A stretch of DNA of 64,000 nt from Tubulanus polymorphus (taxonomy: Eukaryota; Animalia; Nemertea): NCBI RefSeq assembly GCF_964204645.1, contig NC_134030.1, positions 13,510,656-13,574,655 of the forward strand, in the 5' to 3' direction. The translations under genes were made by a program, and so were the position numbers. The notes beneath the pieces are model-generated. The model was not told the DNA's origin and did no database searches. It saw only the letters and a program-made list of their open reading frames with translations. Each line of letters opens with the position of its first letter. Position 1 is the first letter of the stretch. This document shows positions 10,664 through 61,654 of the stretch, piece by piece.

Positions 10664-11759
10664 TATTTTAGAAAAAAAGCAAAAAAAATAATTGAATATC
10701 TCACTACTTTTGTCTATCACTGTGTGGGTGCTGTTTATGGCACCATCTATGTGGAGCAATTAAATTGTCCAGATAAGTCATTTCGGATTCTAGATATTCA
10801 TTATTTTTATTAATTTATTTTGTTTTTATTTGAATATTGTATTACAGTCGTTTCTTATTATTAGTTTTTTCTTAAATTGAAAGATGGCAGTACTGGGTGT
10901 GATGCTAAAATGAATATTTGAATTTGAATTTGAATTTGTTAATCAATTAACATAGTAATTGATTACTAATTTGATTAAAAATTATATCATAATTAAGTTA
11001 AAAATCCATAATTCATTTATCAGTTTTCATTCTTATATTTTTTTCATTCGGAATAATTTATAATTTCAAATTTCACATATTTTTTTAGCACCAGCAACAT
11101 TTACTTAGGTGTTTTAGCTAAGTATATAAGGCAATTCATTCAACCACTGGAGTAGCTCTGGCCAGCAGAGGCATTTTGAAAATGCACCTTCGTCCACTCT
11201 CCGGGTTTCTCCTTCGGTTTCGAATTTCGAGGTTGGTAGAAATTACATTAGGCGCCTTTAATATAATGTGATTTCTACCAATCATTGAAGGAGATCCCGG
11301 TTGACGTGGGTCGCCGGGGGTGTAAGTAGAAATGACGGGGGATAAGCGTCCCGTGGCGCCTTTCAATAATGGGATGCTTATCCCCTGAAAACTCTGTAGG
11401 TCGAGGATAGGGCAATTTTGCTAAAACTTACCGTAAAAACATTGAAATATTCCTTTTAATCACGAGAGAATGATGACTATCCTTCTGTCGTCACGGCCGA
11501 GCTAATTTAAATAAACCTCGCTTTCAGCAACTAATGAAAACGCGGTAGTTCAATACCAGCTAACTGGCTTGTGTGTGTTGTATGTACTGCGTGCTTATTA
11601 TATAACAACAACGTTGTGCAACACCTGTTTGATTGATCAATATTCAAATGAAGCACTCTCTTATAATAACATGTAACAGATGTACTGTATGATTGTAGTT
11701 GTTTATAAAACGACTAAGGTCATTTTGGATTCTAGATATTCATTATTTTTATTTTTTAT

Positions 11760-12086: not shown

Positions 12087-12173
12087 TTATAAGGGAAAAA
12101 AATTTCTTGTGGTGACGAGTGGGGTGTCTCGCCCTCTCGCCCTCTGATCTGAAAGCCTACTTTTCTAATTACT

Positions 12174-13785
12174 CATGGTCACGTGCGCGACGACGCGGAG
12201 CTGTATGTTGTGTGTGGGGCGGCGATCTGCGTGGTTTCTGAAATACATTGTCTTGGGTATTTCTGGGCGGTTTTCCACTATTGTTCACAGCCGGATCCCT
12301 GGTTATAGGCGATGGAGAACGCGATCTATTATCAACATGGTTTGGGGTAGATTTATCTTGCATGTGTAGCTCAGTGTGGTGCTCGTCTCGTTTTGGTGAT
12401 GACGAATTACCTGATACCGGATCTGTGAACGATATGTTGTCGCCGGTTTGCGACAGCGTAATCATTTTGCAACTTTCATCGATAAATCGCTGAGTATTTA
12501 GAGTCTCTATTCGCTCATTCAGTTCGCGAACGGATTTGTAGGTCCGGGATTCACGTCGATCTATAATCTTTTGTGCCTTTTTTGTCCTGTCCATGAGAGC
12601 TTCAATGTTGTCACACGGCACGGTCAACATATCTACTCTTTGCAGGGTCTCGTCCATTTTTGATTTTAGGGAGTTGACATCTGATATTTTGGCACACTCG
12701 TTGACTTTCTGGTCAAGTCTCACTAATGTGGCCTGAATGTCTCCAAACAGTTTGACAATGTCCGTAACATCCATCATATTACCCGTTATGTTTGGATCGG
12801 TCTCAGCGCCGACCGATATTAGTTCTACGCTGGGTGAGGGACAGGTGGCTTGGCACACGGGCTCTGCCGAGCGTGTTTCGCATTGAGGTAGACTATCTCC
12901 TATAGTATCTGTTTGTGATCCTGTAGACTCCGAAACGGGTATTGACGATTTTGGAACACAAGGCGGACATATGTATAGTTCTTTGGTTGAGGAAGTGGCC
13001 TTGGCACGCTCCTTTTCGCCTAGGCCACAGCAATTGAAATGCGTCCAGCTACTACACAATGAACATCCGATCATCTCCTGTGTGTCGGGAGAATAACACA
13101 TCGTACATGAAGATTTTCTCTTGGGTGATAGAAGCAATTCTTTGCAACGTTTGTGTACACTGTCAACGACTCGCGGGAAGTATTCCGCCACCCATAACAG
13201 GTATGAGCTCCCCTGTACGTGGATCTTTGGCGATTTTTTCTGGGAGCCTTTGTATAACGTGATGTGTACCGAGCCGATCTGGTCACCTTTCGGGTCAATA
13301 TACGGTGTGGCGAAATGTAGTCCGTGGTTACCACGATCGGTTGGGTTACCGTGTGAAGCTCTCAGCGTTTCTAAGAAAGCTTGTACTTTGAGTTTATCTA
13401 GTATTATGACGACTGACTGAAACTGTTCATTGATTTGAATATTGTCTATTTCATTCTGATTTGTAACCGGGTTGCATTTAGTTGCGTTGCGTCTGTTGAG
13501 TGAGGTAGAGGGTTTCGAACCCTGAGTCAGTAGGTGGTCACGCAAACTCGTATACGCCGCGTTCAATTGTTGAAATTCTTCGGTCGCATTCGAATTAGAG
13601 TTCTTATCTGGGTGGAATTCCTTTGCCAATTGTATATATTTGATTCGCAGATCTTCAATCGATGGAATAATATCTAGTTGCATCGTTTTTGATAGGTTTT
13701 CTAGATCGATTTCACGACTTACATTTTCCATGGAGGGCGCCATCTTGGATTTTACATGTCGTATCTTTTTATTTATGCATTTCAC
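12174..13785 (-). CDS. DnaJ-domain + PHD-finger + coiled-coil protein, likely non-LTR retrotransposon ORF1; truncated by copy A
   Basis: LAKEFHPDKN..EEFQQLNAAY (J domain, HPD) and C4HC3 PHD CTMC..CSLC..H..C..CPPC. Intronless; the stop codon is supplied by the Polinton terminus. Confidence 0.7.
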
Positions 13786-15399: not shown

Positions 15400-15812
15400 A
15401 CATAAAATAAGAATTTAACGCATATCAATATAAATATTCACTGTTTTAAATATGAATTATTTCATTCGTTAATTACTCGTTACTTTTTATATTGAAAATA
15501 AGAATTTAACGCATATAAATATAAATATTCAATGATTTAAATATGAATTATTTCAATCACACTTTACTAACACTTTTTATGTTTAAAAATCTAACTCATA
15601 CAAATATAAATATTGAAATATGTTTAAAATATATCTATATATCTATTCTATAAGAGCTCGTACTCTCGTACTCTGATCTGAAACCCCACTTTTCTAATTA
15701 CTTATATATGTTATTCATACATATTTTATTCATGTATATGAATATTTTAAGAGTAATAGGGATAATGGGCTTTCATATCAAAGGTTGAAATGGCTAGTGA
15801 GTAAAAAATAAA
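15400..15812 (+). repeat. Orphan Polinton terminal-region fragment
   Basis: 15548-15810 matches 31964-32215 in the same orientation and contains an A-type end motif at 15661-15702. Confidence 0.7.
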
Positions 15813-16349
15813 TTCAGGTGAAATTAGACCCTGGGTCCAAATAAAAGATTGTTATCTTACCTTTAAAAAACATTCCTCTGCACATGCCACGTTTCATGGC
15901 CGAACTTAACGAATAGATTTCACGCAAACTGGTAACGAAAAACGACAGTTCCCCGGGTCCTGTTTGAAGTACGAAACGACGAAAAATGGAACGAAATTAC
16001 GAAAAAAATGAAACGAAATGCAGAACGAAATTACAAAATGACAATTTTTCTACAACTAACGTGATGTACTACTTATGTGTAAGTCGTATTTTTACGAGTT
16101 ATTAATAAGGCATGGTTTTATACGAATTCCGCAAATAACCCGTGAAAATACGATATATACGACCCTCAGATTCCAGCATGGTTCATCATGTTCCCGATCG
16201 TAGCCTGAGCTTGCAGTGCAGATCCTATATTGCTGATATCTACCCTCAATCTATCAATTAAAGCTGCCACATGCACTACGTAGACAACGTCACAAGTAAG
16301 TTACATTTTAACTGTCTAAACACTTACAAAGACCATATCCCAAAATTTT

Positions 16350-16930
16350 TAGGCCAGCCGTAGGCTGAGCCTATTACTATACAAATGGAGCGAAATTAAA
16401 TAACATGGTTTCCAGAGCTAAGGCTCTTTGACTGTGCAACTGAGCATATATTCATACTGTTATTCATTAAAGCATTATCCATTCTCCAACCACAATGAAG
16501 CTGAACTTTGAAAAAGGGCCTTGTTGAAATTTTATATGAGCGTCTTCAAAAAAATCTGAACGCCAAAATATCTGTTTTAAAAAGCCAAACAGAAAGCAAA
16601 GACTCCTCTGTGATTGGCTTAGCCGCAGAGATCAGCAGGTGTTCACGTGTGAACCCGCGGTATAGTCTACCGTTTTACTTCCAGGTTTTATTCTAAGATC
16701 TAAAATCGTATTTTAAGATCGATTTCTGCGAAATCTTTAGTTGATTTGATTTTTGGAGGAATATTTTTATTTGCACTACAGAAAATATTGTCATTTATGC
16801 AAAGTCTGGGAATTAGCTTTTTCTCAAATCGGATGGATGACCTTGATATGCTTATTAGCCATGTGCTCAAACTACGAATTCAATCAAATTTTATTCTGCA
16901 AAAAATATCAAATCCAATTCAATTTTACTT
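16350..16930 (+). mobile_element. Truncated copy of Helentron-like family 1
   Basis: TTTTT|AGGCCAGCCGTAGGCTGAGCCTATTACTATACAAATGGAGCG identical to 26885; 16635-16920 matches 27890-28180. Confidence 0.7.
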
Positions 16931-24878: not shown

Positions 24879-25490
24879 TTATTTTATAAATTTATATTCA
24901 TAGGGAAATTGTAGTCTCAGTAATAATTTTCAACCTTTATTATTCTTTAATTTATTCATATATTCATCATGTAATTCAGTAGGTATAATTTGATTTTCTT
25001 CCAATGATTGTTGCATAGATTTTTTATCTTTGTTATAAAATAAAACTAGAAATCTTATATTCTCCCTAAAGTCTTTAACAATTGAATTATATTTTTGATT
25101 TAAAACCCATGTTGTTATCCCAAAATGTCTTCCAGAGAAAGCTAGATAACATAACTCACTTTCTCTCACTTTTGAATCATGTAAATTTGCGCAATCATCT
25201 ACAATGAATAATGTATTTGATCCTTTATAAGTATCAATTGCTATTTTAATACAATTATCTAAATTTTCTTTTACTGTTTTAGGATTTAATATAATAAACT
25301 TTTTTATCTTAGCTATATCTCTATTATATGTTTTATTCATTTCATAAGTAGGGCAGAATAATATTATATTATCAAAATGATTCTTATAAATAGTTTCTAA
25401 CAAATCTAATATGAAATGTGTTTTACCACAATTGGTTACACCAGTAACTAACATATTATGCGGTTCAAATATAAATAAATCTTTATTCAT
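24879..25490 (-). pseudogene. Packaging ATPase (late premature stop)
   Basis: GVTNCGKT, FIVDD, GRH. Confidence 0.88.
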
Positions 25491-26593
25491 TTATTCTTTT
25501 AATTTTACTTGATAAAATCCATTCATTAAATTTATCATCATATCCTTTATATTTCACCAGAGAATACTTTTTTCCTTTAAGAGTTTTTGTTTTCAATACT
25601 TTTTCTATTTTGTATTCTATTTCATCTGGATTTGGTACAAGTGATAATTCTTGTTCATAGAAATAACCTAATATTTCTTCATCTTTTAGATCTTCTTATT
25701 TATAAACAAATGGTTTAGTTAATATTATCTTTTTAATCTTCAATATTTCTTCAGTAAAATTAGGGGTATAACCTTTATAAAAGGTTTTTCTATATTTAGA
25801 TATTCTTACGTGTTGTCCTATTTTAAATTTAGGTTCTCCGAAATCATGTGTAACAAACGCTCGATATAAATTATTCCAAACTATTTCCGAATTATCTTCT
25901 TTTCTAGCTTGTATAGGTTTCATATTTATAGAACTATGTTTAGAATTATTATAACCTTTCACTAAATCATCTAACACATCGATATATTTATATGTTTCAT
26001 TAGCAGTAAAATATTTCCACATTCTAGTTTTCAATGTTTTATTAAATCTTTCTATAATAGATGGTTTTTTATCTGAGTGTGTTGAAAAATAATCTACATC
26101 GTTATCAGATAATAGTTTTTTAAAATGTTTGTTATAAAATTCTTTACCTTCATCAAATTGTATCTTATCTGGAATAGCTTCTTTAAATATAAATTTAAAA
26201 GCATTTGTCACTTCTATTCCAGTTTTATTTTTGATTGGAATTGACCATGCGTATCGACTGAATATGTCTATAACATTTAATATCCAGAAATCTTTTGTTG
26301 TATTTTTCTAAGTTCTTCATGTCAATTAAATCTGCTTGCCATTGTTGATCGATATATGAAACCATAACTTTTCTTGTTAAATAAGTTTTATCCATTTTCT
26401 TGTGGATTTGATATGTTGGTTGATTTTGTAACCATGATTTCAATTCACTATATTTTATATCACCATGTGGGTGCCGTACTGCACCATTTTCATTATCAGA
26501 TTTAATTTTATTCCATAATTCTGAAACGTTAGAATATGATACTTCACTTTCTGGGTTATAATATAACTCTCTTAAATATTGTTCTTTTTTCAT
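25483..26593 (-). pseudogene. rve integrase with chromodomain (frameshift and stop)
   Basis: QWQADLIDM, QFDEGKEF, IERFNKTL. Confidence 0.9.
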
Positions 26594-26883
26594 CTTATTT
26601 TAATCCATTAATAATAATTCAGATTTAGTTTCAATGGCTTTATGATTTGATTTATTTTCTGGTATGATAGGTTTATTGTCATTGGAATCATCTTTATCAT
26701 CAGATTTGAATTTTGATTTATATATTACGCCGGATAATATAATAACTGTTACTAATCCAATTGTAATATATAATTTATAATTACTTCCAGCATTAGAAGA
26801 ATCAGATGGCTTATTATTTGAATCAATATCAGATAAAGTCTGTGATTCATTTATATCAGTTAATTTCTTTTTCTTAGCTTTTT

Positions 26884-29102
26884 TAGGCCAGCCGTAGGCT
26901 GAGCCTATTACTATACAAATGGAGCGAATTTAAATGACATGGTTTCCACACAAAAGGCTCTTTTGCTTGCCAAGTGAGGGCATATTCGAACAAATCACGT
27001 ATTTAAGCGTAATCCATTCTCGGAATCGTAGCGAGCAGAATTTTGAAATAGGGTCTCATAAAAATGTTTTCTGCATTTTTCACGAAAGTTAAATCGGGAA
27101 AATTTCAATTTTTATCAGCCAATCAGGATGTTGTGTCTTCCCTGTGATTGGTTTATCTGAAAATATCAGCAGCTGTTCACGTGAATTATCGCGATTTCAT
27201 TACTGGCGCTTTTGCGCATGACGACAATACTTCCGCGTTCGCTACGTGTTCGCTGATTGGCCCATTTACTAGGAAATTCCACAGAAGCCTAATGTGGTTT
27301 GTTACAAGCGCTGTGATTGGCCCGACCCGATTCTGGCATGGCTTTAGCTTAGTGGGTTCGAATCCCTTGACGGGTGAAGATGATGGATCCTATCAATATC
27401 TATTGAAACAAATAAGTTTCCCGGTTGGGCAGCTGCGGATATCTACCGGAAGTGTTCCGGTTCGATATTTCGAGGTTTCTTTGAATTTTGGAGTGATATT
27501 GAAATCCGGTAATACCAGCGGTAGATTGTGAAAACCCATTGCATGATATTTGTATTACTTAATCAACGAAAAGCGTCGGGGCCGCGCCAGGAGTTTTCGT
27601 GATTCAAGTAGCGCAATAGCCTACTTCTTCGTGTTCGTCCACCTCAATTTTCACTCCGGCGATCTCTGACACGGCTCTGTCCCCGTCGGCGCTGTGATTT
27701 CACTTTCGTACCACCAAAATTTTTTATTTCTATATCAGGGAGGTCTGGAGAATAAAAAAGTCAAAATTTGGATATCACATAGGCCTGATTTCATCGAATA
27801 AGTCGACCATGGTCGTTACGTTTCCGTACTTATTACCACCTAAAACCCTCTGAACAATTTTGTCACAACCAACATTTCGTTTACAGAAATCAGGTGTTCA
27901 CGTGAATCCGCGGTATCGTCTACTGTTTTACTTCCGGGTTTTATTTTAAGATTTAAAATTGTATTTCAAGATCGATTTCTATGAAATCTTTAGTTGATTT
28001 GGTGTTTGGGAGGAATTTTTATTTGCTCTACAGAAAATTCATCCTTGACAATTGCGCAAGGTTCGCGAAAAAAAGGTTTTACCAAATCGGGTGTATGGCC
28101 TTGATATGCTAATTAGCCATGTGCCCGAATTGCAAATTCAATCAAATTTTATTCTGCCAAAAAATGTTAAATACAATTCGCTTTCCGAGAGTTAATGGTA
28201 TGCTGCATGGAACAAAGTTGTTTTGAGATGGGTCTTGAAGCTATTGAGGTCGAGAGATAACCATCTAGATAGTTCGTGAGAGTTCCAAAGTTTTGAAGAC
28301 GCTTCAAGGTAATGTCTTGATATTTGTTTTATACGTGTATCTACCCTAGACACATCTTCAGGCCAAAAACTGGCCCTGTCAGATTCAAGATGGCCGACTG
28401 GCAGCCATTGTTGTTCGCCAAAATCAGCACTTTTTACACATTTTTGAAGTTTTCGAGGGAAATTTTGAAGACACTTTTATCAATAACCTTGATCATTCGT
28501 ATATATTTGTATCCCCCGAGGGACAATCGGCATGAGAAAAATTGAGTCGATCGGACTCAAGATGGCCGTACTGTGACCTTTTTTGTTCCCAAAAATGTCA
28601 ATTTTGGCCTGAATTCTGAGTACTGTAGCTTTCTAATGGTGCGCCATGTTTCATTGCAATTTGTAATGGGTATTCTTTGGAAAGGGATCTTTTATATCCG
28701 AGAGGGTATTTTTGACCAGGCAATTATGACGCACTTGACAGCCATCTTGGGGTCATCAGTACTCATTCGTAGGTGGAAAAAAAGTTTTTCCACATCATAA
28801 TTGATACTTAAGCATATTTTGCTACTATAATCAATTGGAAAGTTGTAGCTCATGACATGTTCTATGATCGAGGTGAGTTTCAAGCTCATTGGTTTTTTTT
28901 ATGGCCACCAGGGGGCGTTGAACAATACAATAACTTAGTATTTCTATATTACATTCGTTCCTGCTGTCTGTTTTAACACACGATTTTACTATGTAAATGA
29001 TATTGAGCAGGGAGTGTATGTTGATAAATATAACCCACAGATTACATCATTTATAAAAAGCAAATCTGACAGGCTGGCCATTGTGCCCCTTGGGGCTCTT
29101 GT
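26884..29102 (+). mobile_element. Non-autonomous Helentron/Helitron2-like element, family 1
   Basis: Inserted in a T-run without a clear TSD. 5' hairpin AGGCCAGCCGTAGGCTGAGCCT, 3' subterminal IR GGCTGGCC, then hairpin GCCCC-TT-GGGGC. Splits the ORF homologous to 42456-42824. Confidence 0.8.
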
Positions 29103-32154: not shown

Positions 32155-32342
32155 AGTAATAGGGATAATAGGCTTTCAGGTTAAAGGTTGAAGGGGCGTG
32201 TGAGTAAAAAATGAAAATAATAATAATTTACAGTTGAATTAGGAGTTTGCGCGACTAATTCAACTGTAAATTATTGTTATTTTCATTTCTTACGAGCTCG
32301 ACCGTTCGACCTTTGATCTGAAAGCCTATTATCCCTATTACT
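32155..32342. repeat. Terminal imperfect palindrome (~188 bp) of copy B
   Basis: AGTAATAGGGATAATAGGCTTTCAG ... CTGAAAGCCTATTATCCCTATTACT with loop GAGTTTGCGCGA. Confidence 0.9.
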
Positions 32343-32630: not shown

Positions 32631-34303
32631 AGTAATTGGAATATCAGGGCTTCAGATCAGAGGGCGAGAGGGCGACATACCACTCATCACCACAAGTATT
32701 TTTTTAATAAATGGGAAATAGAAAAGCATTCTTAGTGACAATAAATAACAGAATAACACCAGCAAAAAAACAATTTGAAATAAAAAAGTTAGTCGATGTT
32801 ACAAAAGAAATTGTACATTAAATATTGAAATTAGAAAAGGTAAAAACTAAATATGGAGATAAAATATCAGCAAATTTAAGTTACTGTAATGTTAGTACAA
32901 CGCGAGAATTTAAAGTATTTTTACCTGATAAATGGGTTTCATTGAGTACAGAGGAATTAAAAGATTTAGAAGGATTTAAAATAATCCATCATGGAAAAAA
33001 TGAAGACGGGCAACATGATTTAAAATTTGTTGATTAAATAAAAAAATAAATTGATAATAAGATTAATTAAATATTAAGAATCCGAAATAACTTATCTGGA
33101 CAATTTAATTGCTCCGCATAGATAGACAAAAGTAGTGAGATATTTAATTAATTAAAAATGAAATTATTTTTATGCTATTTTTCTAAAATATTAATCCATT
33201 TTTTGTGAATTTTGGAATTCCGGAAGTACTTTATTTTATATTAATAGTAGTTTCAGAATTATTGATATCATAAATTTTATTTGATTTTTTATACCAACTA
33301 TATCCAATCAAAATGAATACAATTATAAATCCAGTTGTAAAATATAAATATTTATCAAATATTCTATTATCAGAAGGAGTAGAAATAACAATATTTTTAC
33401 CATTTTTGTTAACATCTTTATTATTTATTTTTTCTTTTATAGCTTTTTTAAATTCTCTTGATTTAATTCCTAATTGCCGAGACCATTCAATTTTTTTCCG
33501 AGTTCTCGGTTTTTTCTTCACAGTTAATCCTTTCACCTCTTCCACTTCGCTCATTTATCGTAGAAAGATTTTTACTTTCAATATTTGAAAATGTTATAAC
33601 TCCAGTTGATAATAACGTCATAAATCCACCTAATTGAAATCATAAATATCCAATTCATTTATTTAATTCAGTCATGACTAAATAATCATTTTTTAAATCA
33701 AAACATAATTTATTTTCATCTTGAATTGGTAGCATATATTTACATAATTTACAATAACCTTTTACTACATTTTCTGATATCGCATCATTAATTCTAGCTA
33801 TTCTCGCAGTTTCATAAATCTTTGATAATTTAATAATTTCATCTGATTTCATTGTATCTAATTCATTATAAGTTAAATTTTTACTAATAAAACTTTTACA
33901 TTTCCCAGATGCTTTTAATATTTCTAATTGATGTTTGCAATAAAGATAATATTCATAATTATTGTTTGTAGTAATATCATTTAAAGCACCATTATTATCT
34001 GCTGTTAATTTTGTTTCTGTTATACCTAAATCATCCAAATTCTTTTCAATTGGAACATCACTATTTTTAGATTTTATTTTCTTTTCACCTCCCATTTATA
34101 TAACAAAAAAATTAATTGTGTTGTTGCAACTAGAATTTAACTAGAATGTAACTAAAAATATACTAGATTAACAAGCAAGTTGAAATATTATTGTTTTTAT
34201 TTATTTCTTGTTGAATTTTATTTTATTTTTGTTTCAACTACCTTTAACTAGAATTCAACTAGAATGTAACTAAAAATATAATAGATTAACAAGCTAGTTG
34301 AAT

Positions 34304-40141: not shown

Positions 40142-40274
40142 GAGCAGGCGTGCTACTCATAATTTGAAAAGTGGATAATAGAAATATATCAATACGGGAT
40201 ACGCATTTGATGTGTCAAGTCACACCAATGCGGTTTAACATAACATAATTCATAGTTATAGTCAAATTGGGGGT

Positions 40275-40912
40275 AGTAATAGGGGTTTTAGTTGTTTCAT
40301 ACCAAAGGTCGAGAGGTCGAGAAATTTTCCAAATGTGAAAATAACAATAATTTCTACTTGAATTAGTCGCGTACACTCCTAATTCAAGTAGAAATTATTA
40401 TTATTTTAACATTTGGAAAATTTATCAACCTCTCAACCTTTCATATGAAACAACTAAACCCCTATTACTCTATCTAATCACAAGTCTCATAATTTACAAG
40501 CCTCAACACGTTGAGTATTGCGTATTACATGTTGATTCTAGAACCACCCATCTAGAAAACTACATTAGCCAATCACAGTTGAGTATTACTCTAGCCAATC
40601 ACAGTTGAGTATTACTCTAGCCAATCACAGTTGAGTATTTCCAGCCAATCACAGTTGGGTATTACACTATCCAATCACAGTTGAGTATTACTCTATCCAA
40701 TTACAGTTGAGTATTACTCTATCCAATCACAGTTGAGTATTCCCTATTACACTAGCCAATCACAAGCCTCATAATTTACAAGTCTCAACACGCAGCTGGG
40801 TTTTCCCCACTGTTGAGTAGTATAAATAGGCGGGACTCACGCGTGGTGGGACTCACACGTGGCGGGACGCGTTGAGAGGTAAGTGTTGAGAGGTAAGTGT
40901 TATGTTCAATTT
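40275..40912 (+). repeat. Left TIR of copy C (hairpin 40275-40469, CCAAT array, TATA)
   Basis: Reverse complement of 60025-60637. Confidence 0.95.
40567..40900 (+). promoter_or_regulatory. Putative inward Pol II promoter: 8 CCAAT boxes, TATAAATA (40821), GGCGGG, two AG|GTAAGT donors
   Basis: CCAAT at 40569, 40595, 40621, 40645, 40671, 40697, 40723 and 40756; mirrored (7 boxes) in the right TIR upstream of PolB. Confidence 0.6.
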
Positions 40913-40933
40913 AGTAAAAAATACATATAATAA

Positions 40934-41600
40934 ATGGAACCAGAACAACCACAAACTATCAATATTACAAATAACACTGGTGTTATAAATATATACTACA
41001 AGAAGTGTTCTAAATGTGAATTAGATAAATTAGCTTTAACAGAATTTAGTAAGCGTAAGATTAGCAAAGATGGTTTTCAATATTGCTGTAAAACTTGCAC
41101 TAAACTATATACCAAACAATACCGAGAAGATAATATAGAACATTATGATTATTATATGGCAGAATATATTAGAGAAAGATATCAAATAGATCTTAATTTT
41201 AGATTGAAACAATGCTTAAGATCTAGATTAACACAATTATTCAACAAAGAAACACATTCAGAAACACTATCTAATTTATTGGGTTGTACAGATGAATTTT
41301 CATATCATGGATAATATATCAATTCGACGATAAATTGAATATAGATAATTATGGAGATTATTTTCATATTGATCACGTGTTACCGATATCTAAATTTAAC
41401 ATGAATGATGAATACAATAAAAAACTTATTTGGGGTTGGAAAAATTTAAGACCTCTTGAAAAGAAAGAAAATAAAATCTAATCTAATAAACTAGATTTAC
41501 AGTTATATTTAGAGCAGTTAACAAAGGCAAAGAAATTTATTGATCAATGGAACAATGATCCAAATAATCAACAATACGTTGAGTCTTTAATGAGTGGTTA
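40934..41600 (+). pseudogene. Zinc-ribbon + HNH-type endonuclease (frameshifted)
   Basis: Near-identical to 30084-30761; FHIDHVLP lies in the shifted frame. Confidence 0.7.
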
Positions 41601-42824: not shown

Positions 42825-42830
42825 AATAAG

Positions 42831-45800
42831 ATGAAAAAAGAACAATATTTAAGAGAGTTATATTACAACCCAGAAAGTGAAGCATCATATTCTAACGTTT
42901 CAGAATTATGGAATAAAATTAAATCTGATAATGAAAATGGTAATATAAAATATAGTGAACTAAGATTATGGTTACGAAATCAACCAACATATCAAATCCA
43001 CAAGAAAATGGATACAAGAGCCCCAAGGGGCACAATGGCCAGCCTGTCAGATTTGCTTTTTATAAATGATGTAATCTGTGGGTTATATTTATCAATATAC
43101 ACTCCCTGCTCAATGTCATTTACATAGTACAATCGTGTGTTAACACAGACAGCAGGAGCGAATGTTATATAGAAATACTAAGTTATTGTATTGTTCAACG
43201 CCCCTGGTGGCCATATACAAAAACCAATGAGCTTGAAACTCACCAAGATCATAGACCATGTCATGAGCTACAACCTTCCAATTGATTGTGGTAGCAAAAT
43301 ATGCATAGGTACGAATGTAATATAGAAATACTAAGTTATTGTATTGTTCAACGCCCCCTGGTGGCCATAAACAAAAACCAATGAGCGTGAAACTCACCTC
43401 AATCATAGAACATGTCATGAGCTACAACTTTCCAATTAATTATGGTAGCAAAATATGCTTAAGTATCAAAATGATGTGGCAAAACTTTTTTTTTCCACTA
43501 CGAATGAGTACTGATGACCCCAAGATGGCCGCCAATTGCGTCATAATTGCCTGGTCAAAAATACCCTCTCGGATATAAAAGATCCTTTTCCAAAGAATAC
43601 CCATTACAAATTGCAATGAAAAATGGCACACCATTAGAAAGCTACAGGACTCAGAATTCAGGCCAAAATTAACATTTTTGGGAACAAAAAAGGTCACAGG
43701 ACGGCCATCTTGAGTCCGATCGACCCAATTTTTCTCATGCCGATGGGCCCTTGGGGGATACAAATATATACGAATGATCAAGGTTATTGATAAAAGTGTC
43801 TTCAAAATTTCCCTCGAAAACTTCTAAAATGTGTAAAAAGTGCTGATTTTGGCGAACAACAATGGCTGCCAGTCGGCCATCTTGAATCTGACAGGGCCAG
43901 TTTTTGGCCTGAAGATGTGTCTAGGGTAGATACACGTATAAACCAAATATCAAGACATTACCTTGAAGCGTCTTCAAAACTTTGGAACTCTCACGAACTA
44001 TCTAGATGGTTATCTCTCGACCTCAATAGCTTCAAGACCCATCTCAAAACAACTTTGTTCCATGCAGCATACCATTAACTCTCGGAAAGCGAATTGGATT
44101 TAACATTTTTTTTGGCAGAATAAAATTTGATTGAATTTGCAATTCGAGCACATGGCTAATTAGCATATCAAGTTCATACACTCGATTTGGGAAAAGAAAT
44201 TTTTCGCGAACCTTGCGCAATTGTCAAGGATGAATTTTCTGTAGAGCAAATAAAAATTCCTCCCAAACACCAAATCAACTAAAGATTTCATAGAAATCGA
44301 TCTTGAAATACGATTTTAAATCTTGAAATAAAACCCGGAAGTAAAACAATAGACGATACCGCGGGTTCACGTGAACACCTGATTTCTGTAAACGAAATGT
44401 TGGTTGTGACAAAATTGTTCAGACGGTTTTAGGTGGTAATAAGTACGGAAACGTAACGACCATGGTCGACTTATTCGATGAAATCAGGCCTATGTGATAT
44501 CCAAATTTTGACTTTTTTATTCTCCAGACCTCCCTGATATAGAAATAAAAAATTTTGGTGGTACGAATAGTGCAATCACAGCGCCGACGGCGACAGAGCC
44601 GTGTCAGAGATCGGCGGAGTGAAAATTGCGGAGGTGGACGAACACGAAGAAGTAGGCTATTGAGCTACTTGAATCGCGAAAACTCCTGGCGCGGCCCCGA
44701 CGCTTTTCGTTGATTAAGTAGTACAAATATCAAGCAATGGGTTTTCACAATCTACCGCCGGTGTTTACCGGATTTCAATATCACTCCAAAATTCAAAGAA
44801 ACCTCGAAATATCGAACTGCAACACTTTCGAGAGATATCCGCAGCTGCCCAACCGGGAAACTTATTTGTTGATAGGATCCATCATCCCGTCAAGGGATTC
44901 GAACCCACTAAGCTAAAGCCGTGCCAGAATCGGGTCGGGCCAATCACAGCGCTTGTAACAAACCACATTAGGCTTCTGTGGAATTTCCCAGTAAATGGGC
45001 CAATCAGCGAACACGTAGCGAACGCGGAAGTCGCATGTTGATACATGACGTCATGCGCAAAAGCGCCAGTAATGAAATCACGATAATTCACGTGAACAGC
45101 TGCTGATATTTTTAGATAAACCAGGGAAGTGTGATGACTCATCACACTTCCCTGGATAAACCAATCACAGGGAAGACACAACTTCCTGATTGGCTGATAA
45201 AAATTGAAATTTTCCCGATTTTATTTTCGTGAAAAATGCAGAAAACATTTTTATGAAAGCCTATTTCAAAATTCTGCTCGCTACGATTCCGAGAATGCAT
45301 TACGCTTAAATACGTGATTTGTTCGAATATGCCCTCACTTGGCAAGCAAAAGAGCCTTTTGTGTGGAAACCATGTCATTTAAATTCGCTCCATTTGTATA
45401 GTAATAGGCTCAGCCTACGGCTGGCCTAAAAACTTATTTAACAAGAAAAGTTATGGTTTCATATATCGATCAACAATGGCAAGCAGATTTAATTGACATG
45501 AAGAACTTAGAAGAATACAACAAAGGATATTTCTGGATATTAAATGTTATAGACATATTCAGTAGATACGCATGGTCAATTCCAATCAAAAATAAAACTG
45601 GAATAGAAGTGACAAATGCTTTTAAATCTATATTTAAAGAAGCTATTCCAGATAAGATAACGATGTAGATTATTTTTCAACACATTCAGATAAAAAAGCA
45701 TCTATTATAGAAAGATTTAATAAAACATTGAAAACTAGAATGTGGAAATATTTTACTGCTAATGAAACATATAAATATATCGATGTGTTAGATGATTTAG

Positions 45801-46279
45801 TGAAAGGTTATAATAATTCTAAACATAGTTCTATAAATATGAAACCTATACAAGCTAGAAAAGAAGATAATTCAGAAAAAGTTTGGAATAATTTATATAG
45901 AGCGTTTGTTACACATGATTTTGGAGAACCTAAATTTAAAATTGGACAACACGTTAGAATATCTAAATATAGAAAAACCTTTTACAAAGGTTATACCCCT
46001 AATTTTACTGAAGAAATATTCAAGATTAAAAAGATAATATTAACTAAACCTTTTGTTTATAAACTAGAAGATCTAAAAGATGAAGAAATATTAGGTTATT
46101 TCTATGAACACGAATTATCACTTGTACCAAATCCAGATGAAATAGAATACAAAATAGAAAAAGTATTGAAAACAAAAACTCTTAAAGGAAAAAAGTATTC
46201 TCTGGTGAAATATAAAGGATATGATGATACATTTAATGAATGGATTTTATCTAGTAAAATTAAAAGAATAAATGAATAA
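42831..46279 (+). pseudogene. rve integrase with chromodomain, interrupted by Helentron-like insert and a small deletion
   Basis: N-terminus 42831-43013, resumes at 45429; QWQADLIDM, IDIFSRY, ERFNKTL, LVKYKGY..FNEW. Confidence 0.9.
43014..45428 (-). mobile_element. Helentron-like family 1, second full copy
   Basis: Reverse complement of 26884-29102 with the same termini and a different target site. Confidence 0.82.
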
Positions 46280-46883
46280 AGATTTATTTATATTTGAACC
46301 GCATAATATGTTAGTTACTGGACTAACCAATTGTGGTAAAACACATTTCATATTAGATTTGTTAGAAACTATTTATAAGAATCATTTTGATAATATAATA
46401 TTATTCTGTCCTACTTATGAAATGAATAAAACATATGATAGGGATATAGTTAAAATAAAAAAGTTTATTATATTAGATCCTAAAACAGTAAAAGAAAATT
46501 TAGATAATTGTATAAAAATAGCAATTGATACATATAAAGGATCAAATACATTATTCATTGTAGATGATTGCGCTAATTTACATGATTCAAAAGTGAGAGA
46601 AAGTGAGTTATGTTATTTAGCTTTCTCTGGGAGACATTTTGGGATAACAACATGGGTTTTAAATCAAAAATATAATTCAATTGTTAAAGGCTTTAGGGAG
46701 AATATAAGATTTCTAGTTTTATTCTACAATAAAGATAGAAAATCTATGCAACAATCATTGGAAGAAAATCAAATTATACCTACTGAATTACATGATGAAT
46801 GTATGAATAAATTAAAGAATAATAAAGGTTCAAAATTATTACTTAGGCTTCAATTTCCCTATGAATATAAATTTATAAAATAA
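46272..46883 (+). CDS. A32/FtsK-type DNA packaging ATPase
   Basis: Intact 203 aa: GLTNCGKT, FIVDD, GRHFGI, NQ. Confidence 0.92.
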   Translation: MNKDLFIFEPHNMLVTGLTNCGKTHFILDLLETIYKNHFDNIILFCPTYEMNKTYDRDIVKIKKFIILDPKTVKENLDNCIKIAIDTYKGSNTLFIVDDCANLHDSKVRESELCYLAFSGRHFGITTWVLNQKYNSIVKGFRENIRFLVLFYNKDRKSMQQSLEENQIIPTELHDECMNKLKNNKGSKLLLRLQFPYEYKFIK

Positions 46884-48204: not shown

Positions 48205-49451
48205 TTAATACATAACACTATTTTATTGAGAATTTACAATATTTAATTGCGCGTCAGATACAATATAAATGTGCATTTTAAAATTTTGATTCCTTTATTC
48301 TTTGTCATGAATAATTGTATTCCATCTTTAGTGTTTTGTAGTTTTTTTCCAGAACCATGTAATGAATTATCCTCTGTTGTTCTAAAATCTAACCATAATG
48401 CATATTTATTACCGATATAATAATCAATTTGATTAATATTACAATTTTCAGATGATTTTACTTTTTCATTCATAAAATGTTTTCTAATTTCTGGCCATTG
48501 ATCAATCATTCTCATTCCTTGACAAAATATTTTATTTGCTATTCCTTCGATAGTTATTTCTACTTTTGTTATTTCAGGATTATAATAATTATCAACATTT
48601 ATTGCACCATTAGTATATGTTGCAATGGTAAAAAATATTAATATACCTTTAATAGATCTTCTTGGGAAGTTAATATTCTCATTAATTATTTCATCATTTG
48701 CATTAATAGTTACAGTCTTAGATTTATCAATATAATCATATAATAAATAAAATCCTTGATTGTATTGAGTTTGAATTATACTTGAAATATTTTCATTAGT
48801 TACTGTATCATATTCTAAACATATATTCGATAATTTATAACCCATATCTTTATTAACGCTAGATATTACAATTTCATTAACAGGAGCAAATGTTATTTCG
48901 AATATAACGTCTTCTTGAATTGCGTATTTATATAAAGGTGCATCATTATTTATCAATTCAAAGTCTAATGGAATTTTATATTTGCTTCCATATATACTTT
49001 TTATCAATTTATCTATAGCATTAGTTAATATTGCATTATGTGCTTCTGATCTTAATTTATTTTGGTTTTCTGATTGGATGCCTTGAAATATCATATTATT
49101 TCAATTTTCTTTAGTTAACCATAAATCTTTATAATGCATAAATAAATTATAATCATCTAATGAGAAAACTGTTTCTGGACCGATCTTTATTGTTAATATT
49201 TTAATCAAATATCTTCCAACATTATCGACAACATAATTATTATTATTACCGTTTACTTTTATATCGGCTGATAAATAAATACTATTTGGAACATAAAAAG
49301 TATTTTGTGTTAATCGAGGAATTCTAACATATAAAGTTTCATCGGGATTAATATTAGAAGGGTTGTGAGTAATTATATGATGTGATCTTTCTGCTTTAAT
49401 AGCATTAGATATTCTATGATTCTTAGAAGGATTGATATAACTCCCACTCAT
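48205..49451 (-). pseudogene. Major capsid protein (stop near 49101, 3' frameshift)
   Basis: ORFs 49101-49451 and 48243-49094 match 6459-7706. Confidence 0.8.
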
Positions 49452-54905: not shown

Positions 54906-57900
54906 TTAACACGTTAGAATTCTTTTCATTATCTCGTTCTCTTTTGTTTCTTCTCTTTTAAATTTTAAGTATTCATCTAAATTGCAGCCATAAGCAACTG
55001 TATGAATTCCATCATCCAGAATATATCTTTTATCATCAAATGGGTTTAGACTAATGTTTTCAATTTCTTCAATAAACATTTCATGATCTTCAGATCTTAA
55101 ACATCTCATCTTATGTTTTCTAACTTCTTCATTGAATATACAATTGATGTAATCTTTGAAATGAATATTCTTTTCTACTACACTTTTGGTTATTCCTTTT
55201 ACTTTTTTAGCTTCATGTTCTTTAGTTTTATATGAATACATTTTAGATCTAATACCAATGAACTCTATCATTTCTTCACCACCTAATTCATCTTTGAATT
55301 TACCAGGAACTTTTTTATTATCATTGCTAAACAATTCATGATTTTTAGGATAGTTACTAAAATCAAAATGATGTTTTAATGTTTTTAAATCATCTGTTAT
55401 GTTATTAGTTTTTATCTTTAATATGTAACTGTCAGTATTTTTTATGATTAATGGAAATCCACAATTAAATGTACCATCTTCAGTTGTTAAATCATAAACA
55501 TATTCTGTAGGATTGGATATTTCAAATAAATCTAGCTTCTTCAGTTAGTTCATTTTCTACATGTGTTAATTGAAATACATTTGGTTTATCCTTTCTAATA
55601 TTAACTAACATATTAAATCCTAATGAATTGCATAATATATTTAATCCTGATATAGCAACTTTTCCTTTTTGTGTCAAAGATATAGTTTTCTGTTTTGTAT
55701 AGTTTTTTGAACCATCTGCAGCATAAAATCCAATGAAGAACCATTTTCTTAAATCATATTTTGCATTTAATACATAATCTGGAACTATCTTTTCTTTTGT
55801 TGAAGTATTACTTTTGACTATTGCATGAATATAGAATTCATCATTATATTTAATTGCAAAATCTTTAGGGTTATTTACAAGTATTCTATAAATTGCTGAT
55901 GATTTCATAAAATCTATGATTTTAAATGTTTTATTTGAGTAAACTTGTTCACAGTATTTTTTAATTCTATCTAATAATTTCAAATCTTGATTGCATAAAT
56001 ACCAACAATATTTAGTTCCACTAACATATTTATACACACCTGCTGATCCATCTCCCATAAAAAATCCTTTGATAAATTATTCTTTTTCTTCCAATGTTTC
56101 GGGTTCTATATTATAGATATTATCAATTATTTCATCAAATGACATATGATTCATTCTTGGGTAAAATCATTTATGTAATAATTCATCTCCAATTTTTGTA
56201 TCAGTTGGTTTTATTTCATCACCATTTTGTTTAATTAAACTATGATCTTCAGTAACATCAACAAATCCTAATTTAGTTCTAACTCTATAGATTTTCTTAT
56301 TCGTTTTATGTCTAATTATATTCTTTAATTTCACCCATCCATTGTTTGTCCAAACATCCATTAATCCATTTATTTGTATTAATTCTTTTTCACCATACGA
56401 AATATAAAGTTCATTTTGTTTTGGAATTATTTCTGAAATTCTTCTTATTAACATTTGATTATTATATTTTAAAAATATTGGGGTGTCAGCTGTAACAGAA
56501 TCAAAATATAATATTTCTATATGTTTTTCTCCAAAATGAGGTTGTAATACATTATAATAGAATTCATACATTAATAACTTTGGTATTTCTAAAACTGAAG
56601 CACCAACATAGATTGGTTTATTAAATTTCATTGATGTTCTTCTCATTTTAACTGCGGCTAAATTTTCATCAAATATTCTGTTACCTAAAAACTTAGGATA
56701 TGTTTGTAAATGCCTTATCCTTTTACCATTACTAACTAACTCAATATCATTTCTATTTCTAATATTTTCACAAGTCTTACCATAGAATGCATTATTCATT
56801 AACTTGAAGAAATCTTTCTCAAAATCAGTTTTAGTTTCAGTTCTCTGTTTGGTGTTAAAATCTATATATTTTTCTAACCACTTAGATTGACTAAATGAAA
56901 TATAACTATGTACTTTTTTTTAGGATCATTCCTTGTTTTAGATAAAACTTTAACATTCTATAATGTACTACATAATTAAATTTATCTTCCTGAGTAACCA
57001 TTAACTTTTCTGTATGAATATGATTTTCGGGTTTAATTCTTTTTTGATAATTTGATAATTCTTCATGAGTTACAGTTTTATGTTCTGGACAGTATGCTAG
57101 ATTTCTAGATTTAAATTTAATATGTTCAGGATATTCCAAGTCTACAACAAAAAAGTAACCAGTATCTGAATCATCTGCAATATCTAGGATTCTTTTCTTC
57201 CAATCAAATTTATCATTATTTTCATGTTGTTAAACTTCACTTATTTCAAATACTCCATAAGGTTGTGGTTCCATCATTGCCCAACCGTACAAATTATTTG
57301 CATCTATATATAATAACTTATATCCGGGGTTATCATTTACATTGAAATATCTATCGCCTAATACACCTGAAACTCCTCCTCTTATAGATTTTTCAAATAA
57401 TAATAATTGATCTATATTTGTTAACAAATCCATTTTTATATCTGTAAATTTTAAACCACAATCCCATGTTAATCCTGGACTTGAATAACAATGACAAGGA
57501 TCAATATTGAAATATTTTAGGTTTACATCTCTAAACCTTTCAAATATATCGGCTAATAATAATACATCTGATTTTAAATATAAATCTACTAATTGTCTAT
57601 GATTTTCTATTTTGAAATTATTCCAAATATTCAATGTTCTATTATAGACTTCATCTTTAACATATTCATTTTTTAATTCATCATAGAATTGTTCTTTTAA
57701 TAATTCAGATATATTGAAATCATTATGATTTTTATAGAAAGAATATGGAATCGCGCCTTTATATCTCATTAATTGAAAATCATCATTATTTGGGTAGTGT
57801 TGTTTTAATATTTTTAATTCATCATCAACTAATGATTTTGGAACTATTTAAAAATCTATATGAATCTATAAATCTTAAACACCCAAATTGGAATGATATA

Positions 57901-60002
57901 TAATTCTCAGATGTTTTAGCTAACATTTTAAATTCATAAGTTGGTATTTTATCTTTTGATCTATTTTAATTTAATCTTTCTATTTCATTATTGATTTCTT
58001 CTATTTTATAACATAGCTGTTTGATAAATAAATGTGCATCATATCCTGATAGATTATGAAATATAACTGGTACAAAGTTAATTTTCTTAGCTTGTAAGTT
58101 ACAATTCTCATGTGCAGCACCTCTAAACTTTCCATTCAAATGATCATGGTCTCTTACTTTTTTATCTCTAAAATTAAATATCTTTTCACAATAATAACAT
58201 TTATCTGCAAACTCAAATGCTTCTTTATCTTCTTCTGTCATTATAATTTCTATATTTCTATTTAACTTTTCATTAAATTTTATTTCATATTCAATTAATA
58301 AGTCACAAAAATGATTGATAACATTTTCATTTCTATAATCATATTATTCACTTTTAATTAGTTCTGGATAATCAGATTTTATGTATAATCCAATAGCAGC
58401 AGCTGATTGATGAATCTTTTTAATTGTATTTGTTTTTGGGGGATCTGAATAATCAATTATATTATTTTCATTAGAATTTAATTTCTTTCTTTTATAATAT
58501 ATTTCTTTTCTATCTTGATCAGTTAATTCTATATTTAATGATTCAAAATCTCCATATATGACAAATGGAACTTTATTTTTGTAATCACATTTTTTGAATT
58601 CTAATATTTTATCCTTTTCATTTGGTAAAACTAATTTACAATAATCATGATTTTCACAAAATTGTTTATGATTTAATAATGCACTTTCAGTTCTGAATTT
58701 ATGTAAACATTTTCTACATAGATATATTTTATTATCAAAATCATTTTCTGATTTAAAAGATAAATCAATTCTTTTAATCCACATATAATGATTCTCATAA
58801 TATAATATATCTATAACACCATTTGAATCATAATCTTTTGATAGATATAAAGGTTCTAATGTATAATGTTTTATATTGTTACCTTTTGTATTTGGCAATT
58901 TGATTAAATCAAATACATTTATCTTTATATTATTATCTCTTTCTATTTTTGGGATGTTTTTAATTATAACAGGATACTTATCTATCTTATAATTATTTTC
59001 AAATGGTTTATAATGAGTTAATCTAAAACTATGTGTAATATCTTCTGTTGGATGTAAGCAACTTATAATAGCCCATAGAAAACATTTATCATCAAAATTT
59101 TGTACATTTATTACAGCATTAGTTTTAAATGGTAGTTTAATATAACTCGATGCTTCAATATCTGGTTCTTTATAATATGATACATTATTTTCATTTATTG
59201 GTTTTGATTAAGTTAACTTATCATATTTTGTGTTATAAACATGTAAAGTCATAAATATTATTTCATCAAATATTAAACCAGATCCTTCAAAATATTTCTC
59301 TTCTATTTTAGTTTTTACTTCATTATAACATTTATCTAATTTATCATCTATATGTTGTTTTGAAATAATATGTTGTGAATGAGAATTTATATTATATATT
59401 GGGTTATCTTCAGATTTTATGAATTTAACTTTAACTGATATGCTAATTTTAGGATATTCAACATCAGTTATTATTTTCATTATTTCTTTCATATTTTCTA
59501 AATGTTTTTTATTTTCTTCTAATGTTTTTCCTTTATGAAATTTAAACTCGATAGCTGCTGGACCAATATCACTTTTAAATGCTTCGGTTATCTCTATATC
59601 TTTTTTATTATCTAATGAATTAATCTAATTTCTTACATCTTCCATGTATGGTCTTTTACTGTTTAATTTATTTTTAATGCTTTTAATTGTCTTATGTTTC
59701 TTATCATTATCTTCATCAAAATAATCTTCACCTAGAATATCATTATTCTTATTTCTAATATGACTTTTAGATTGTAAATGTTCATTATAATATCTTTTAT
59801 CACTGAATGATTGATTACATGTATCACATTTATATGTTTTTTTTTCATTCTTTAATTCATCTAATTTAGTTTCTAATATTTCATCTTCATATTCTAATTT
59901 CAATTTATTCTCTAAATGTGTTTTAGTTTTATTGTGCCTTGCTTTTTGGGATTTATCTATATTGATTTTACATGTTGAACAGTAGTACTTATTTGCTTCC
60001 AT
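54906..60002 (-). pseudogene. polB: Protein-primed family B DNA polymerase (multiple stops/frameshifts), intein-containing
   Basis: N-terminal C2H2 fingers; DDKCFLWA..ENHYMWI (OTU-like); YGDFES; CYYC..RDHDHLNGKFRGAAHENCN; FHNLSGYD; YLKSDV; YIDANNLYGWAM; KLMNNAFYGKT; YFD|TDS; GKFKDE; SKMY; KKVKG. Confidence 0.95.
55437..56499 (-). mobile_element. Intein with LAGLIDADG homing endonuclease inserted in PolB motif C
   Basis: YFD|SVTADTP; block B VTEDHSL; KGFFMGDGS and IGFYAADGS; C-terminal YVYDLTTEDGTFNCGFPLIIKN|TDS. Two stops (56167, 56077) and one frameshift (~55530). Confidence 0.93.
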
Positions 60003-60024
60003 TTTAATATTTAAATTTTTTATT

Positions 60025-60637
60025 AAAATTGAACATAACACTTACCTTTCAACGCGTCCCGCCACATGTGAGTCCAACCACGTGTGAGTCCCGCCTATTT
60101 ATACTACTCAACAGTGGGGAAAACCCAGCTGCGTGTTGAGACTTGTAAATTATGAGGCTTGTGATTGGCTAGTGTAATAGGGAATACTCATTTGTGATTG
60201 GATAGAGTAATAAACAACTGTGATTGGATAGATTTATAGTAAAGTACTCAACTGTGATTGGCTGGGAATACTCAACTGTGATTGGATAGAGTAATAGGGA
60301 ATACTCAACTGTGATTGGCTAGAGTAATACTCAACTGTGATTGGCTAATGTAGTTTTCTAGATGGATGGTTCTAGAATCAACATGTAATACGCAATACTC
60401 AACGTGTTGAGGCTTGTAAATTATGAGACTTGTGATTAGATAGAGTAATAGGGGTTTAGTTGTTTCATATCAAAGGTTGAGAGGTTGAAAAATTTTCCAA
60501 ATGTTAAAATAATAATAATTTCTACTTGAATTAGGAGTGTACGCGACTAATTCAAGTAGAAATTATTGTTATTTTCACATTTGGAAAATTTCTCGACCTC
60601 TTGACCTTTGGTATGAAACAACTAAACCCCTATTACT
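60025..60637 (-). repeat. Right TIR of copy C (hairpin 60444-60637)
   Basis: Reverse complement of the left TIR. Confidence 0.95.
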
Positions 60638-61654
60638 GGGGGTTACTCGGGTCGTTTAGTTGTCTGTGGAGTCGAGTAGATTGGTTACCCGTCTGTAACA
60701 TTGATTACGGAGACTCGTCAGCTTGATGAGTTGTATGTATTATGATTGTGCACCACCTGCATTTTCCGAAATAATGTTCATATAATTATTTGAAGGGACG
60801 ATTTAAATCAATTATCAACGTACATCTGAATATGTAATAGTCCTTAGTAACTTTCTGTTGCAGAGGGCATAGAAAAGATTTTGAAATTATTTAATTAAAA
60901 TATAAATTTTATTTACGAAAAATAAACTATTATGGTCAGTACAAATTGAAAATTCATAGTGTATTTTAAAGAACAAGCTTACATAGCTTACAGAATACAT
61001 CACGTACATTTGAATTTTATAAGTGATGGGTAAAAATCAACATGTGGCAGAAAGAAATGTAGTTAATTATTTAACAATATCGAAATATGTGCTCTCTTTT
61101 TAAACTAATGGAGTGATACGCATTTAATCACATGGCCTGTATTAAAAGATAGAACATACAAGTTGGATATTTATAAGTCGAAACATGTGAACAGAAACTA
61201 AAATTTTGATGTCAGTGACCAGTATGGAATTACACAACGACAATTGGCTTTAAACTCAACAAACATTATTAAAGAATGTTTCAAACAAAATGCTTTAACG
61301 ACATGAATAAACTTGTTTTACAAAACAAGAAAGTACATTTTGAACTTTTGAATGGTCGAATCCCATTTATTCAAAGTAACCTGTGATGTGGCGATTCTCG
61401 GAGCCATCCTTCTGTGACGTCACTAACAAGTGGTCACGGCCGTACGCGTGCACTCATTTCTTTGAAAATCTAGCTTCTTCGCGGAGCGGGACCTGGTGAC
61501 GCTGCGCCCGTCCCCTTCGCGCTGAGATATATCTTATTCCCAGTCAGCAGAGACAGGTTCTAAAGATCATAGAGTGCATCGCTGGAGGTTTTCCGATCCA
61601 TATAATTGAATTTGAATTGGTGCGGTGGCGCTCTCAATGCGGAAGTTTTTGTCA

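Follow-up and report, generated by a model that had tools for sequence, protein, structure and literature searches.

Poxvirus telomeres are long, AT-rich, incompletely paired hairpins that are covalently closed, with flip/flop isomers and an A22 resolvase. The left end of MVM is likewise an imperfect terminal hairpin, and the account of this end in PMC1185569 describes a mismatch that leaves one arm active, in a virus with a single-stranded DNA genome, an NS1 HUH nickase and a host polymerase. In Streptomyces, as the relevant sections of PMC5449611 have it, linear DNA capped by a terminal protein has a palindromic end of ~170 bp, and fold-back of the 3′ strand repairs truncated ends and then primes; these ends form several short GNA-loop hairpins, in a system with an internal origin, a Tap primase and no family B polymerase. 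Bidnaviruses have a Polinton-derived pPolB and inverted terminal repeats that are stated, in the passage concerned of PMC4061559, to form no parvovirus-like hairpins. Polintons (Mavericks) carry a pPolB, an rve integrase and an A32 ATPase, with long terminal inverted repeats (TIRs), AGT...ACT ends and a 6-bp target duplication (PMC8097293; 10.1101/2023.08.22.554363). The words 'hairpin' and 'palindrom' do not occur in the main text of either of these surveys, and PMC6431247 uses 'hairpin' for Helitrons only. Among the literature that we searched on Polinton ends, the sole direct precedent for palindromic ends is a preprint on Halocafeteria, whose account of palindromes places them beside the target duplication in virophage subtypes 1, 2, 5 and 6 as well as subtype 4 of the PLVs, preferentially in elements without pPolB (10.64898/2026.07.28.741278); older descriptions may mention such ends, and the supplements of the preprint may include pPolB elements that have palindromes.

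Here, we describe a Polinton from the nemertean Tubulanus polymorphus, element C (40275-60637), within a stretch of 64,000 nucleotides (the window). We assign C to the Polintons/Mavericks on sequence features: long TIRs, AG...CT ends, a 6-bp duplication, and matches to the polymerase, the integrase and the A32 ATPase. Unlike in the surveyed Polintons, each TIR of C starts with a 190-nt quasi-palindrome, and the tip reads AGTAAT, not (AGT)2. An earlier sequence-only reading of the window had started from the premise that Polinton TIRs are normally described as plain inverted repeats, which has to be qualified in view of the Halocafeteria palindromes. Those palindromes resemble the ones in C in lying within the TIR of integrated Polisuviricotina with an rve integrase, and hairpin priming is proposed for them; however, the example given measures 52 nt, as against ~190 nt in C, the palindromes preferentially accompany non-pPolB replication genes rather than a TP-vOTU-pPolB as in C, and the section of the preprint on palindromes reports neither arm covariation nor motif asymmetry. 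With the Streptomyces telomere, C shares a working principle only, since its hairpin is one long stem with a 12-nt loop and its priming domain is polinton-type. The analogy with poxvirus and parvovirus telomeres, also drawn in the sequence-only reading, is loose: the outer end of C is joined to host DNA by an integrase, unlike the closed poxvirus end, and C is known from integrated copies only; no counterpart of the single-stranded DNA genome, NS1 HUH nickase or host polymerase of MVM was found for C, which has a terminal-protein domain; and the hairpin is missing from a sister family that shares the end motif.

Element C and its terminal hairpins

The polymerase, integrase and capsid genes of C (Table 1) are all broken, the integrase gene being interrupted by a repeat at about 43017-45432. 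The broken gene at 48243-49451 probably encodes the major capsid protein, judging from its size and position; it has no Pfam match. The named protein relatives come from a clam and a nematode. An adenovirus-type maturation protease found no match among the 27 C ORFs scanned, a set that covers ORFs of <100 aa and broken frames only in part. Behind 40274, 321 reads depart from the reference, with loose ends that match, by eye, the host sequence to the right of C. Because an exact duplication stands outside both hairpins and these reads represent the empty site, we deduced that the hairpin tips are the ends used by the integrase. The target site of C is itself multi-copy (~400 reads deep). In the TIRs (40566-40901 and 60040-60344), a 26-bp tandem array with CCAAT words comes first, and a TATA-like word with short repeats follows immediately ahead of the first start codon. 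This region is probably a promoter that is present twice, once at either end; the repeat unit of its array includes the last letters of the end motif.

The polymerase comprises zinc fingers, a terminal-protein domain (59211-59624), a vOTU protease, an endonuclease-VII-like insert (57966-58343) and a LAGLIDADG insert (55522-56076). Its N-terminal part, modelled with X at the stop (pLDDT 86.3), resembled a little-finger-like terminal-protein fold (Z 8.7 and rmsd 2.6, with 94 aligned to 4ir1_F); behind it comes an OTU fold in which Cys and His are present (Z 6.5, rmsd 3.6, 94 aligned to 6oar_A). Foldseek pointed to the same family for the N-terminus, although none of its matches fell below E 0.001. 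Of 53 aligned rows, 49 preserve a Ser in the alpha2-beta4 loop and 50 the OTU Cys. This TP-vOTU layout corresponds to that described in the relevant part of PMC11161782, and because of it we predict that C is protein-primed; given the modelled terminal-protein domain, hairpin priming would not be required in C. The endonuclease-VII-like insert (57966-58343, minus strand) lies in the exonuclease region and is also present in close and distant relatives. A LAGLIDADG domain at 55522-56919 (minus strand; PF14528, E 4.5e-8) has no such Pfam match in the three closest full-length relatives. It is flanked by stretches resembling intein splicing motifs, and is presumably an intein.

Three quasi-palindromes of ~190 nt were found, with arms of 91 bp in C and 88 bp in B and a loop of 12 nt. 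The fold-backs that the sequence-only reading had placed at both ends of C and at the end of B are thus borne out, with fold energies of -71.6 (C-left), about -75.0 (C-right) and about -59.6 kcal/mol (B) and z scores of -19.3, -20.9 and -16.4, no shuffled sequence of 200 folding as well in any case. In a palindrome scan of the window (loop <=30 nt), the three hairpins scored 55-70 and the next best 21, and they were the sole long palindromes found. Their arms differ from each other at 7 positions in C and at 11 in B. The two hairpins of C are nearly identical (191 matches, 3 mismatches, 1 gap) and represent the two halves of one TIR, so that the window holds only two independent full hairpins. 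The third is probably B's own end, judging from its position, B being without a second end or a target duplication in the window. In run X4, raw reads covered the hairpin loop to a depth of ~1,400-1,500; with a read total of 1,934 million letters, this would correspond to >70 hairpin copies if the genome exceeds 100 Mb. We rejected the idea that the hairpin is a free MITE or foldback element, because the inner and outer flanks differ in all three hairpins and the duplication brackets the whole of C.

Within 60 kb, Polinton pieces that are related to each other lie clustered among other repeats into which they were inserted; there are at least five (A, E, B, D and C). A and D, whose cores are ~85% like that of C, have the end motif and no long hairpin. 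Fragment E preserves part of a fourth hairpin end, absent from the list of the sequence-only reading, and a plain end situated inside this arm suggests that the hairpin was added outside an older plain end. The cores of B and C are 87-97% alike, whereas their hairpin arms are ~70% identical and their sub-terminal DNA is unrelated beyond 30788 and 40907, respectively; the ends therefore appear to have been exchanged or gained as units. The inner arm of C meets its repeat array at a common 10-letter word.

Several other features of the pieces were observed. One 2.4-kb repeat family occupies 26880-29100 in B and 43017-45432 in C, with a fragment at 16343-16920; a single insertion common to the integrase genes of B and C was rejected, because the sites lie ~500 bp apart in element coordinates and the repeats were inserted independently. 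The integrase-ATPase block of A (7764-9469) is inverted relative to those of B (24886-26587) and C. The ORF at 28-801 was considered as the polymerase of A and rejected, and a 538-codon frame adjoining the A end (12169-13785, minus strand) matched DnaJ (E 5e-10) and, weakly, PHD, with no atlas match. The closest metagenome relative (L001) has, at 10340-10981 on the minus strand, a 213-aa ORF without a counterpart in the ORF list of C, which we take to resemble a deoxynucleoside kinase from its P-loop motif. A pattern scan of viral contigs for the hairpin core or the end motif gave no match, and 12 pattern matches in prokaryote genomes are attributed to chance, none pairing >14 of 36 letters. 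Protein-led scans gave no loci in viral or genome contigs, and no long hairpin was present in 21 metagenome loci, all of which stop short of the element ends.

Table 1. Positions of the element ends, repeats and genes considered in the window
Feature	Coordinates	Strand	Remarks
C left terminal hairpin	40275-40469	+	outer arm 40275-40366, loop 40367-40378, inner arm 40379-40469
C right terminal hairpin	60444-60637	-	outer arm 60547-60637, loop 60535-60546, inner arm 60444-60534
Hairpin, probable B end	32155-32342	-	outer arm 32255-32342, loop 32243-32254, inner arm 32155-32242
Truncated inner arm in fragment E	15752-15812	+	B-type fourth hairpin end, cut off by unrelated sequence
Relic plain end in E	15657-15702	-	40/46 letters like A end; 49 nt inside E inner arm
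Plain end of A	12114-12173	-	end motif, in which CGA is double; long hairpin absent
Plain end of A-like fragment D	32631-32690	+	no long hairpin
Target site duplication, left copy	40269-40274	+	6 bp, GGGGGT; directly outside left hairpin
Target site duplication, right copy	60638-60643	+	6 bp; directly outside right hairpin
C left TIR	40275-40942	+	~670 bp; 26-bp tandem array at 40566-40741
C right TIR	59994-60637	-	89.8% like left TIR; extends to polymerase start
Integrase-chromodomain gene	42825-46279	+	chromo match in C; rve matches in homologous ORFs of A and D
A32-like packaging ATPase	46272-46883	+	PF04665, E 4e-12
Probable major capsid gene, broken	48243-49451	-	415 aa best match 73% identical; 1755 relatives
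Protein-primed DNA polymerase gene, broken	54906-60002	-	DNA_pol_B_2 PF03175, E 8e-10; stops and frameshifts

Joint change of the arms and the asymmetric end motif

How have the two arms of each hairpin remained paired? As described in the sequence-only reading, the stem variants of B and C differ and yet stay paired, and the loops are similar, agreeing in 10 of their 12 letters. When B is compared with C-right, 17 of 88 columns have changed identically in both arms, where 2.5 would be expected if the arms were independent; the other columns are 55 invariant ones, 2 common asymmetries and 14 others. Pairing has thus been preserved far beyond chance. However, 7 of the 17 columns belong to one shifted block near the tip, so that there were fewer events than columns, and both arms of B are 3 nt shorter than those of C. 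The reads give a similar picture: 14 of the 40 variant rows considered (88 further rows exist) form 7 mirrored pairs that keep the Watson-Crick pair, mostly at like frequencies (e.g., 30% and 27%, or 32% and 31%), and insertions of 6 nt lie at places that nearly mirror each other, in 60 reads outside and 38 inside, although the read variants are unphased and a read with one arm can align to either. Because change comes in blocks and with mirrored indels, copying from arm to arm is a simpler explanation than paired mutations. The word 'compensatory', which the sequence-only reading had used, would overstate such change, which on sequence comparison alone is no proof of selection.

The opposite possibility, that the arms were merely homogenised by one recent inverted duplication, is contradicted by the same alignment: changes common to both arms flank kept asymmetries at arm positions 35 and 70, a pattern that one recent whole-arm duplication cannot produce. 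At both positions the letter C stands outside and T inside, in element B as well as in element C. The recurrence of arm asymmetries is thereby upheld only in part, as these two account for only 2 of the 7 in C and 2 of the 11 in B; moreover, the asymmetry at position 70 is absent from 22-38% of reads (T at 40345 in 535 of 1390; G at 40400 in 280 of 1248).

A double CGA motif at arm positions 35-46 separates outer, or end-type, arms from inner arms among the ten arms in the window. The first CGA is intact in five of six end-type arms, C-right having a one-letter change, and reads TGA in all four inner arms (Fisher p 0.048, from copies that are not independent). The second is intact in all six end-type arms and altered in all four inner arms, in three different ways. 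The end-type arms with the double motif include the hairpin-less ends of the sister family A/D, and we consider the motif to be a putative ancestral end signal, kept by the outer arm and lost from the inner arm. The inner arm does recreate a second AGTAAT end, as had been noticed from the sequence, though one that has lost its CGA motifs. In the read-table rows considered (smallest share ~21%), no variant occurred at 40310, 40318, 40427 or 40435, which suggests that the outer/inner difference holds for most copies. CpG observed/expected is 0.42 in the element core, as against 1.1-1.5 in the flanks, and decay of CpGs must be taken seriously as another explanation of the inner-arm losses. In so CpG-poor a core, the CpGs kept in the outer arms and in the loop are notable; two loop CpGs are kept in all three copies, and 1 of the 12 loop positions varies among the 40 variant rows considered (of which, as above, 88 more exist). 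At the plain A-type ends, a tiny stem-loop begins at the second CGA motif (12116-12131), and in the outer arm of B (32293-32300) the letters of this mini stem-loop make up a palindrome of 8 bp without a mismatch.

In all three hairpins, folding is more stable by 5.2-10.2 kcal/mol for the strand that has its 3′ end at the terminus than for the complementary one (-77.5 vs -71.6, -80.0 vs -74.8 and -69.6 vs -59.4), because the C/T differences become G.T wobbles there. Eight distinct differences favour this strand and two the other (p 0.055), a bias for some of which CpG decay accounts; the polarity is alike at all four hairpin ends (p 0.125). Only four reads connect 40283 with 40469 across opposite strands, but flop molecules could hide as mismatches: a 50:50 flip/flop mixture predicts 21-25% at the diagnostic site, close to the smallest share displayed (~21%). 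Five reads join 40325 to 40420 via 22 letters that form a 6-bp stem and a 10-nt loop, with two more similar reads; the first four and last six letters of this loop are as in the C loop. In addition, 406 reads depart from the reference behind 40371 and 411 before 40374, with loose ends that are, by eye, largely complementary. These aggregated read tables hint at shorter and longer hairpins. If these are real, the turn would lie at a similar motif in short and long arms alike.

Alternative origins of the hairpin

Might the palindromes be assembly or library fold-back artefacts? Some reads do switch strand at the loop (at least 37, in three joint rows), but there are hairpins at three sites, their arms are specific to the family and differ from each other reproducibly, the loop is spanned by reads and contigs from 4 runs in 2 studies, and a Logan contig spans 40338-40406 without any difference. 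Since the loop is covered by both raw reads and this contig, we do not regard the hairpin as an assembly artefact and hold this explanation to be scarcely credible. A non-adaptive relic is the main alternative, though less likely than not: a fold-back or end-to-end accident would have added an inverted copy of the end, with template switching driven by the palindrome keeping the arms alike; selection would act on the outer arm alone while the inner arm decays, mostly by CpG loss. The hairpin-less ends of A and D, the plain end inside the E inner arm together with the 10-letter word at the junction of the C arm and array, which fit accretion, and the several hairpin lengths suggested by the reads are all consistent with it, and both inner-arm CG losses in C are C-to-T changes at CpG in a CpG-poor element. 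Long palindromes tend toward deletion. Yet this module has survived next to two TIR interiors that are unrelated, and the reads cover it to a high depth; its loop keeps CpGs although it is not templated by another arm, and conversion should at times have restored the inner CG, whereas the first CG is present in none of the four inner arms.

Two further explanations assign the hairpin a different function. In the first, which we consider unlikely, the 3′ hairpin self-primes as in parvoviruses, and closed or dimer forms are resolved on one side, the arm mismatch choosing the active side. The 3′ end forms a flush pairing with the inner end motif, the strand that carries this 3′ end folds best, and the fixed polarity at all four ends fits one-sided resolution; the description of MVM in PMC1185569 has a mismatch that makes one dimer-bridge arm an origin and the other inactive, and hairpin priming is proposed in the Halocafeteria preprint, in whose account, however, palindromes preferentially accompany non-pPolB elements (10.64898/2026.07.28.741278). 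The terminal-protein domain with its predicted linking Ser, and the lack of a Pfam match to a HUH/Rep (NS1) nickase among the 27 C ORFs, weigh against self-priming. Although the endonuclease-VII-like insert in the polymerase could serve such a process, it also occurs in distant polymerases. The second explanation, which we find quite improbable, is that the palindrome extrudes as a cruciform in the supercoiled chromosome and is cut by a junction nuclease (of the host, or the endonuclease-VII-like domain) or by the integrase, thereby excising the element. Long AT-rich arms at both exact ends are compatible with this, as is the PF02945 match in the C polymerase and in all three close full-length relatives. 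A 12-nt loop and 7-11 mismatches, however, disfavour cruciform extrusion; a cut at the centre would not yield the precise outer ends seen, and hairpin-less ends integrate too.

A possible fold-back telomere

Protein-primed strand displacement, as in adenovirus and phi29, frees single strands on which a duplex end must re-form for reinitiation. The explanation that we tentatively prefer, with somewhat less than even confidence, is that the hairpin is maintained by selection as a local fold-back, by which the duplex origin is rebuilt and repaired on displaced strands, its inner copy being disabled. The 3′ 190 nt of a displaced strand would snap back into a flush duplex end open to new priming, so that a local fold-back of 91 bp would replace a panhandle of 20 kb, and a nibbled 3′ end could be refilled on the inner arm. 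Refilling of a 3′ end by fold-back has been shown for the Streptomyces telomere, according to the part of PMC5449611 concerned with end repair. Patchy copying in the folded state would let the arms evolve together; it must be assumed to be patchy, because simple refilling on the inner arm would wipe out the asymmetries. Selection would keep the CGA motifs outside and tolerate or favour their loss inside, and, if the MVM bubble is a guide, this loss may prevent use of the inner copy as an origin directed outward or as an end for integration.

The view of the sequence-only reading that the hairpin is a selected DNA structure gains from the CGA asymmetry, the CpG-rich loop in a CpG-poor element and the presence of the module on unrelated TIR interiors, but not from the both-arm changes taken alone. 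The strongest fact against any essential role is the hairpin-less A/D family: as it has the same end motif, the clade as a whole does not need the hairpin. We speculate, with rather more reserve than for the fold-back repair itself, that these ends may constitute a self-panhandle telomere, that is, an evolved fold-back module with a conserved turn, one live and one disabled end signal and variable arms, transferred as a unit. Based on two independent full hairpins and unphased reads, the hairpin is best regarded as a new variant of the Polinton end rather than a new system.

Terminal palindromes, reported until now mainly for protist elements without pPolB, are hereby extended to one whose polymerase has a terminal-protein domain, and to this the present analysis adds the double CGA motif, kept in end-type arms and broken in inner arms. 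Removal of the terminal protein before integration is called unclear in the relevant part of PMC11161782, and this shedding, the exit of Polintons from the chromosome and reinitiation on displaced strands are all questions that hairpin ends touch. A genome in which one sister family has the hairpin and another lacks it, together with near-identical arms, amounts to a natural experiment, in which the few arm differences point to bases read by the polymerase or the integrase. If true, a self-panhandle telomere would mean that an integrating virus combines protein priming and the repair of its ends on a hairpin template.
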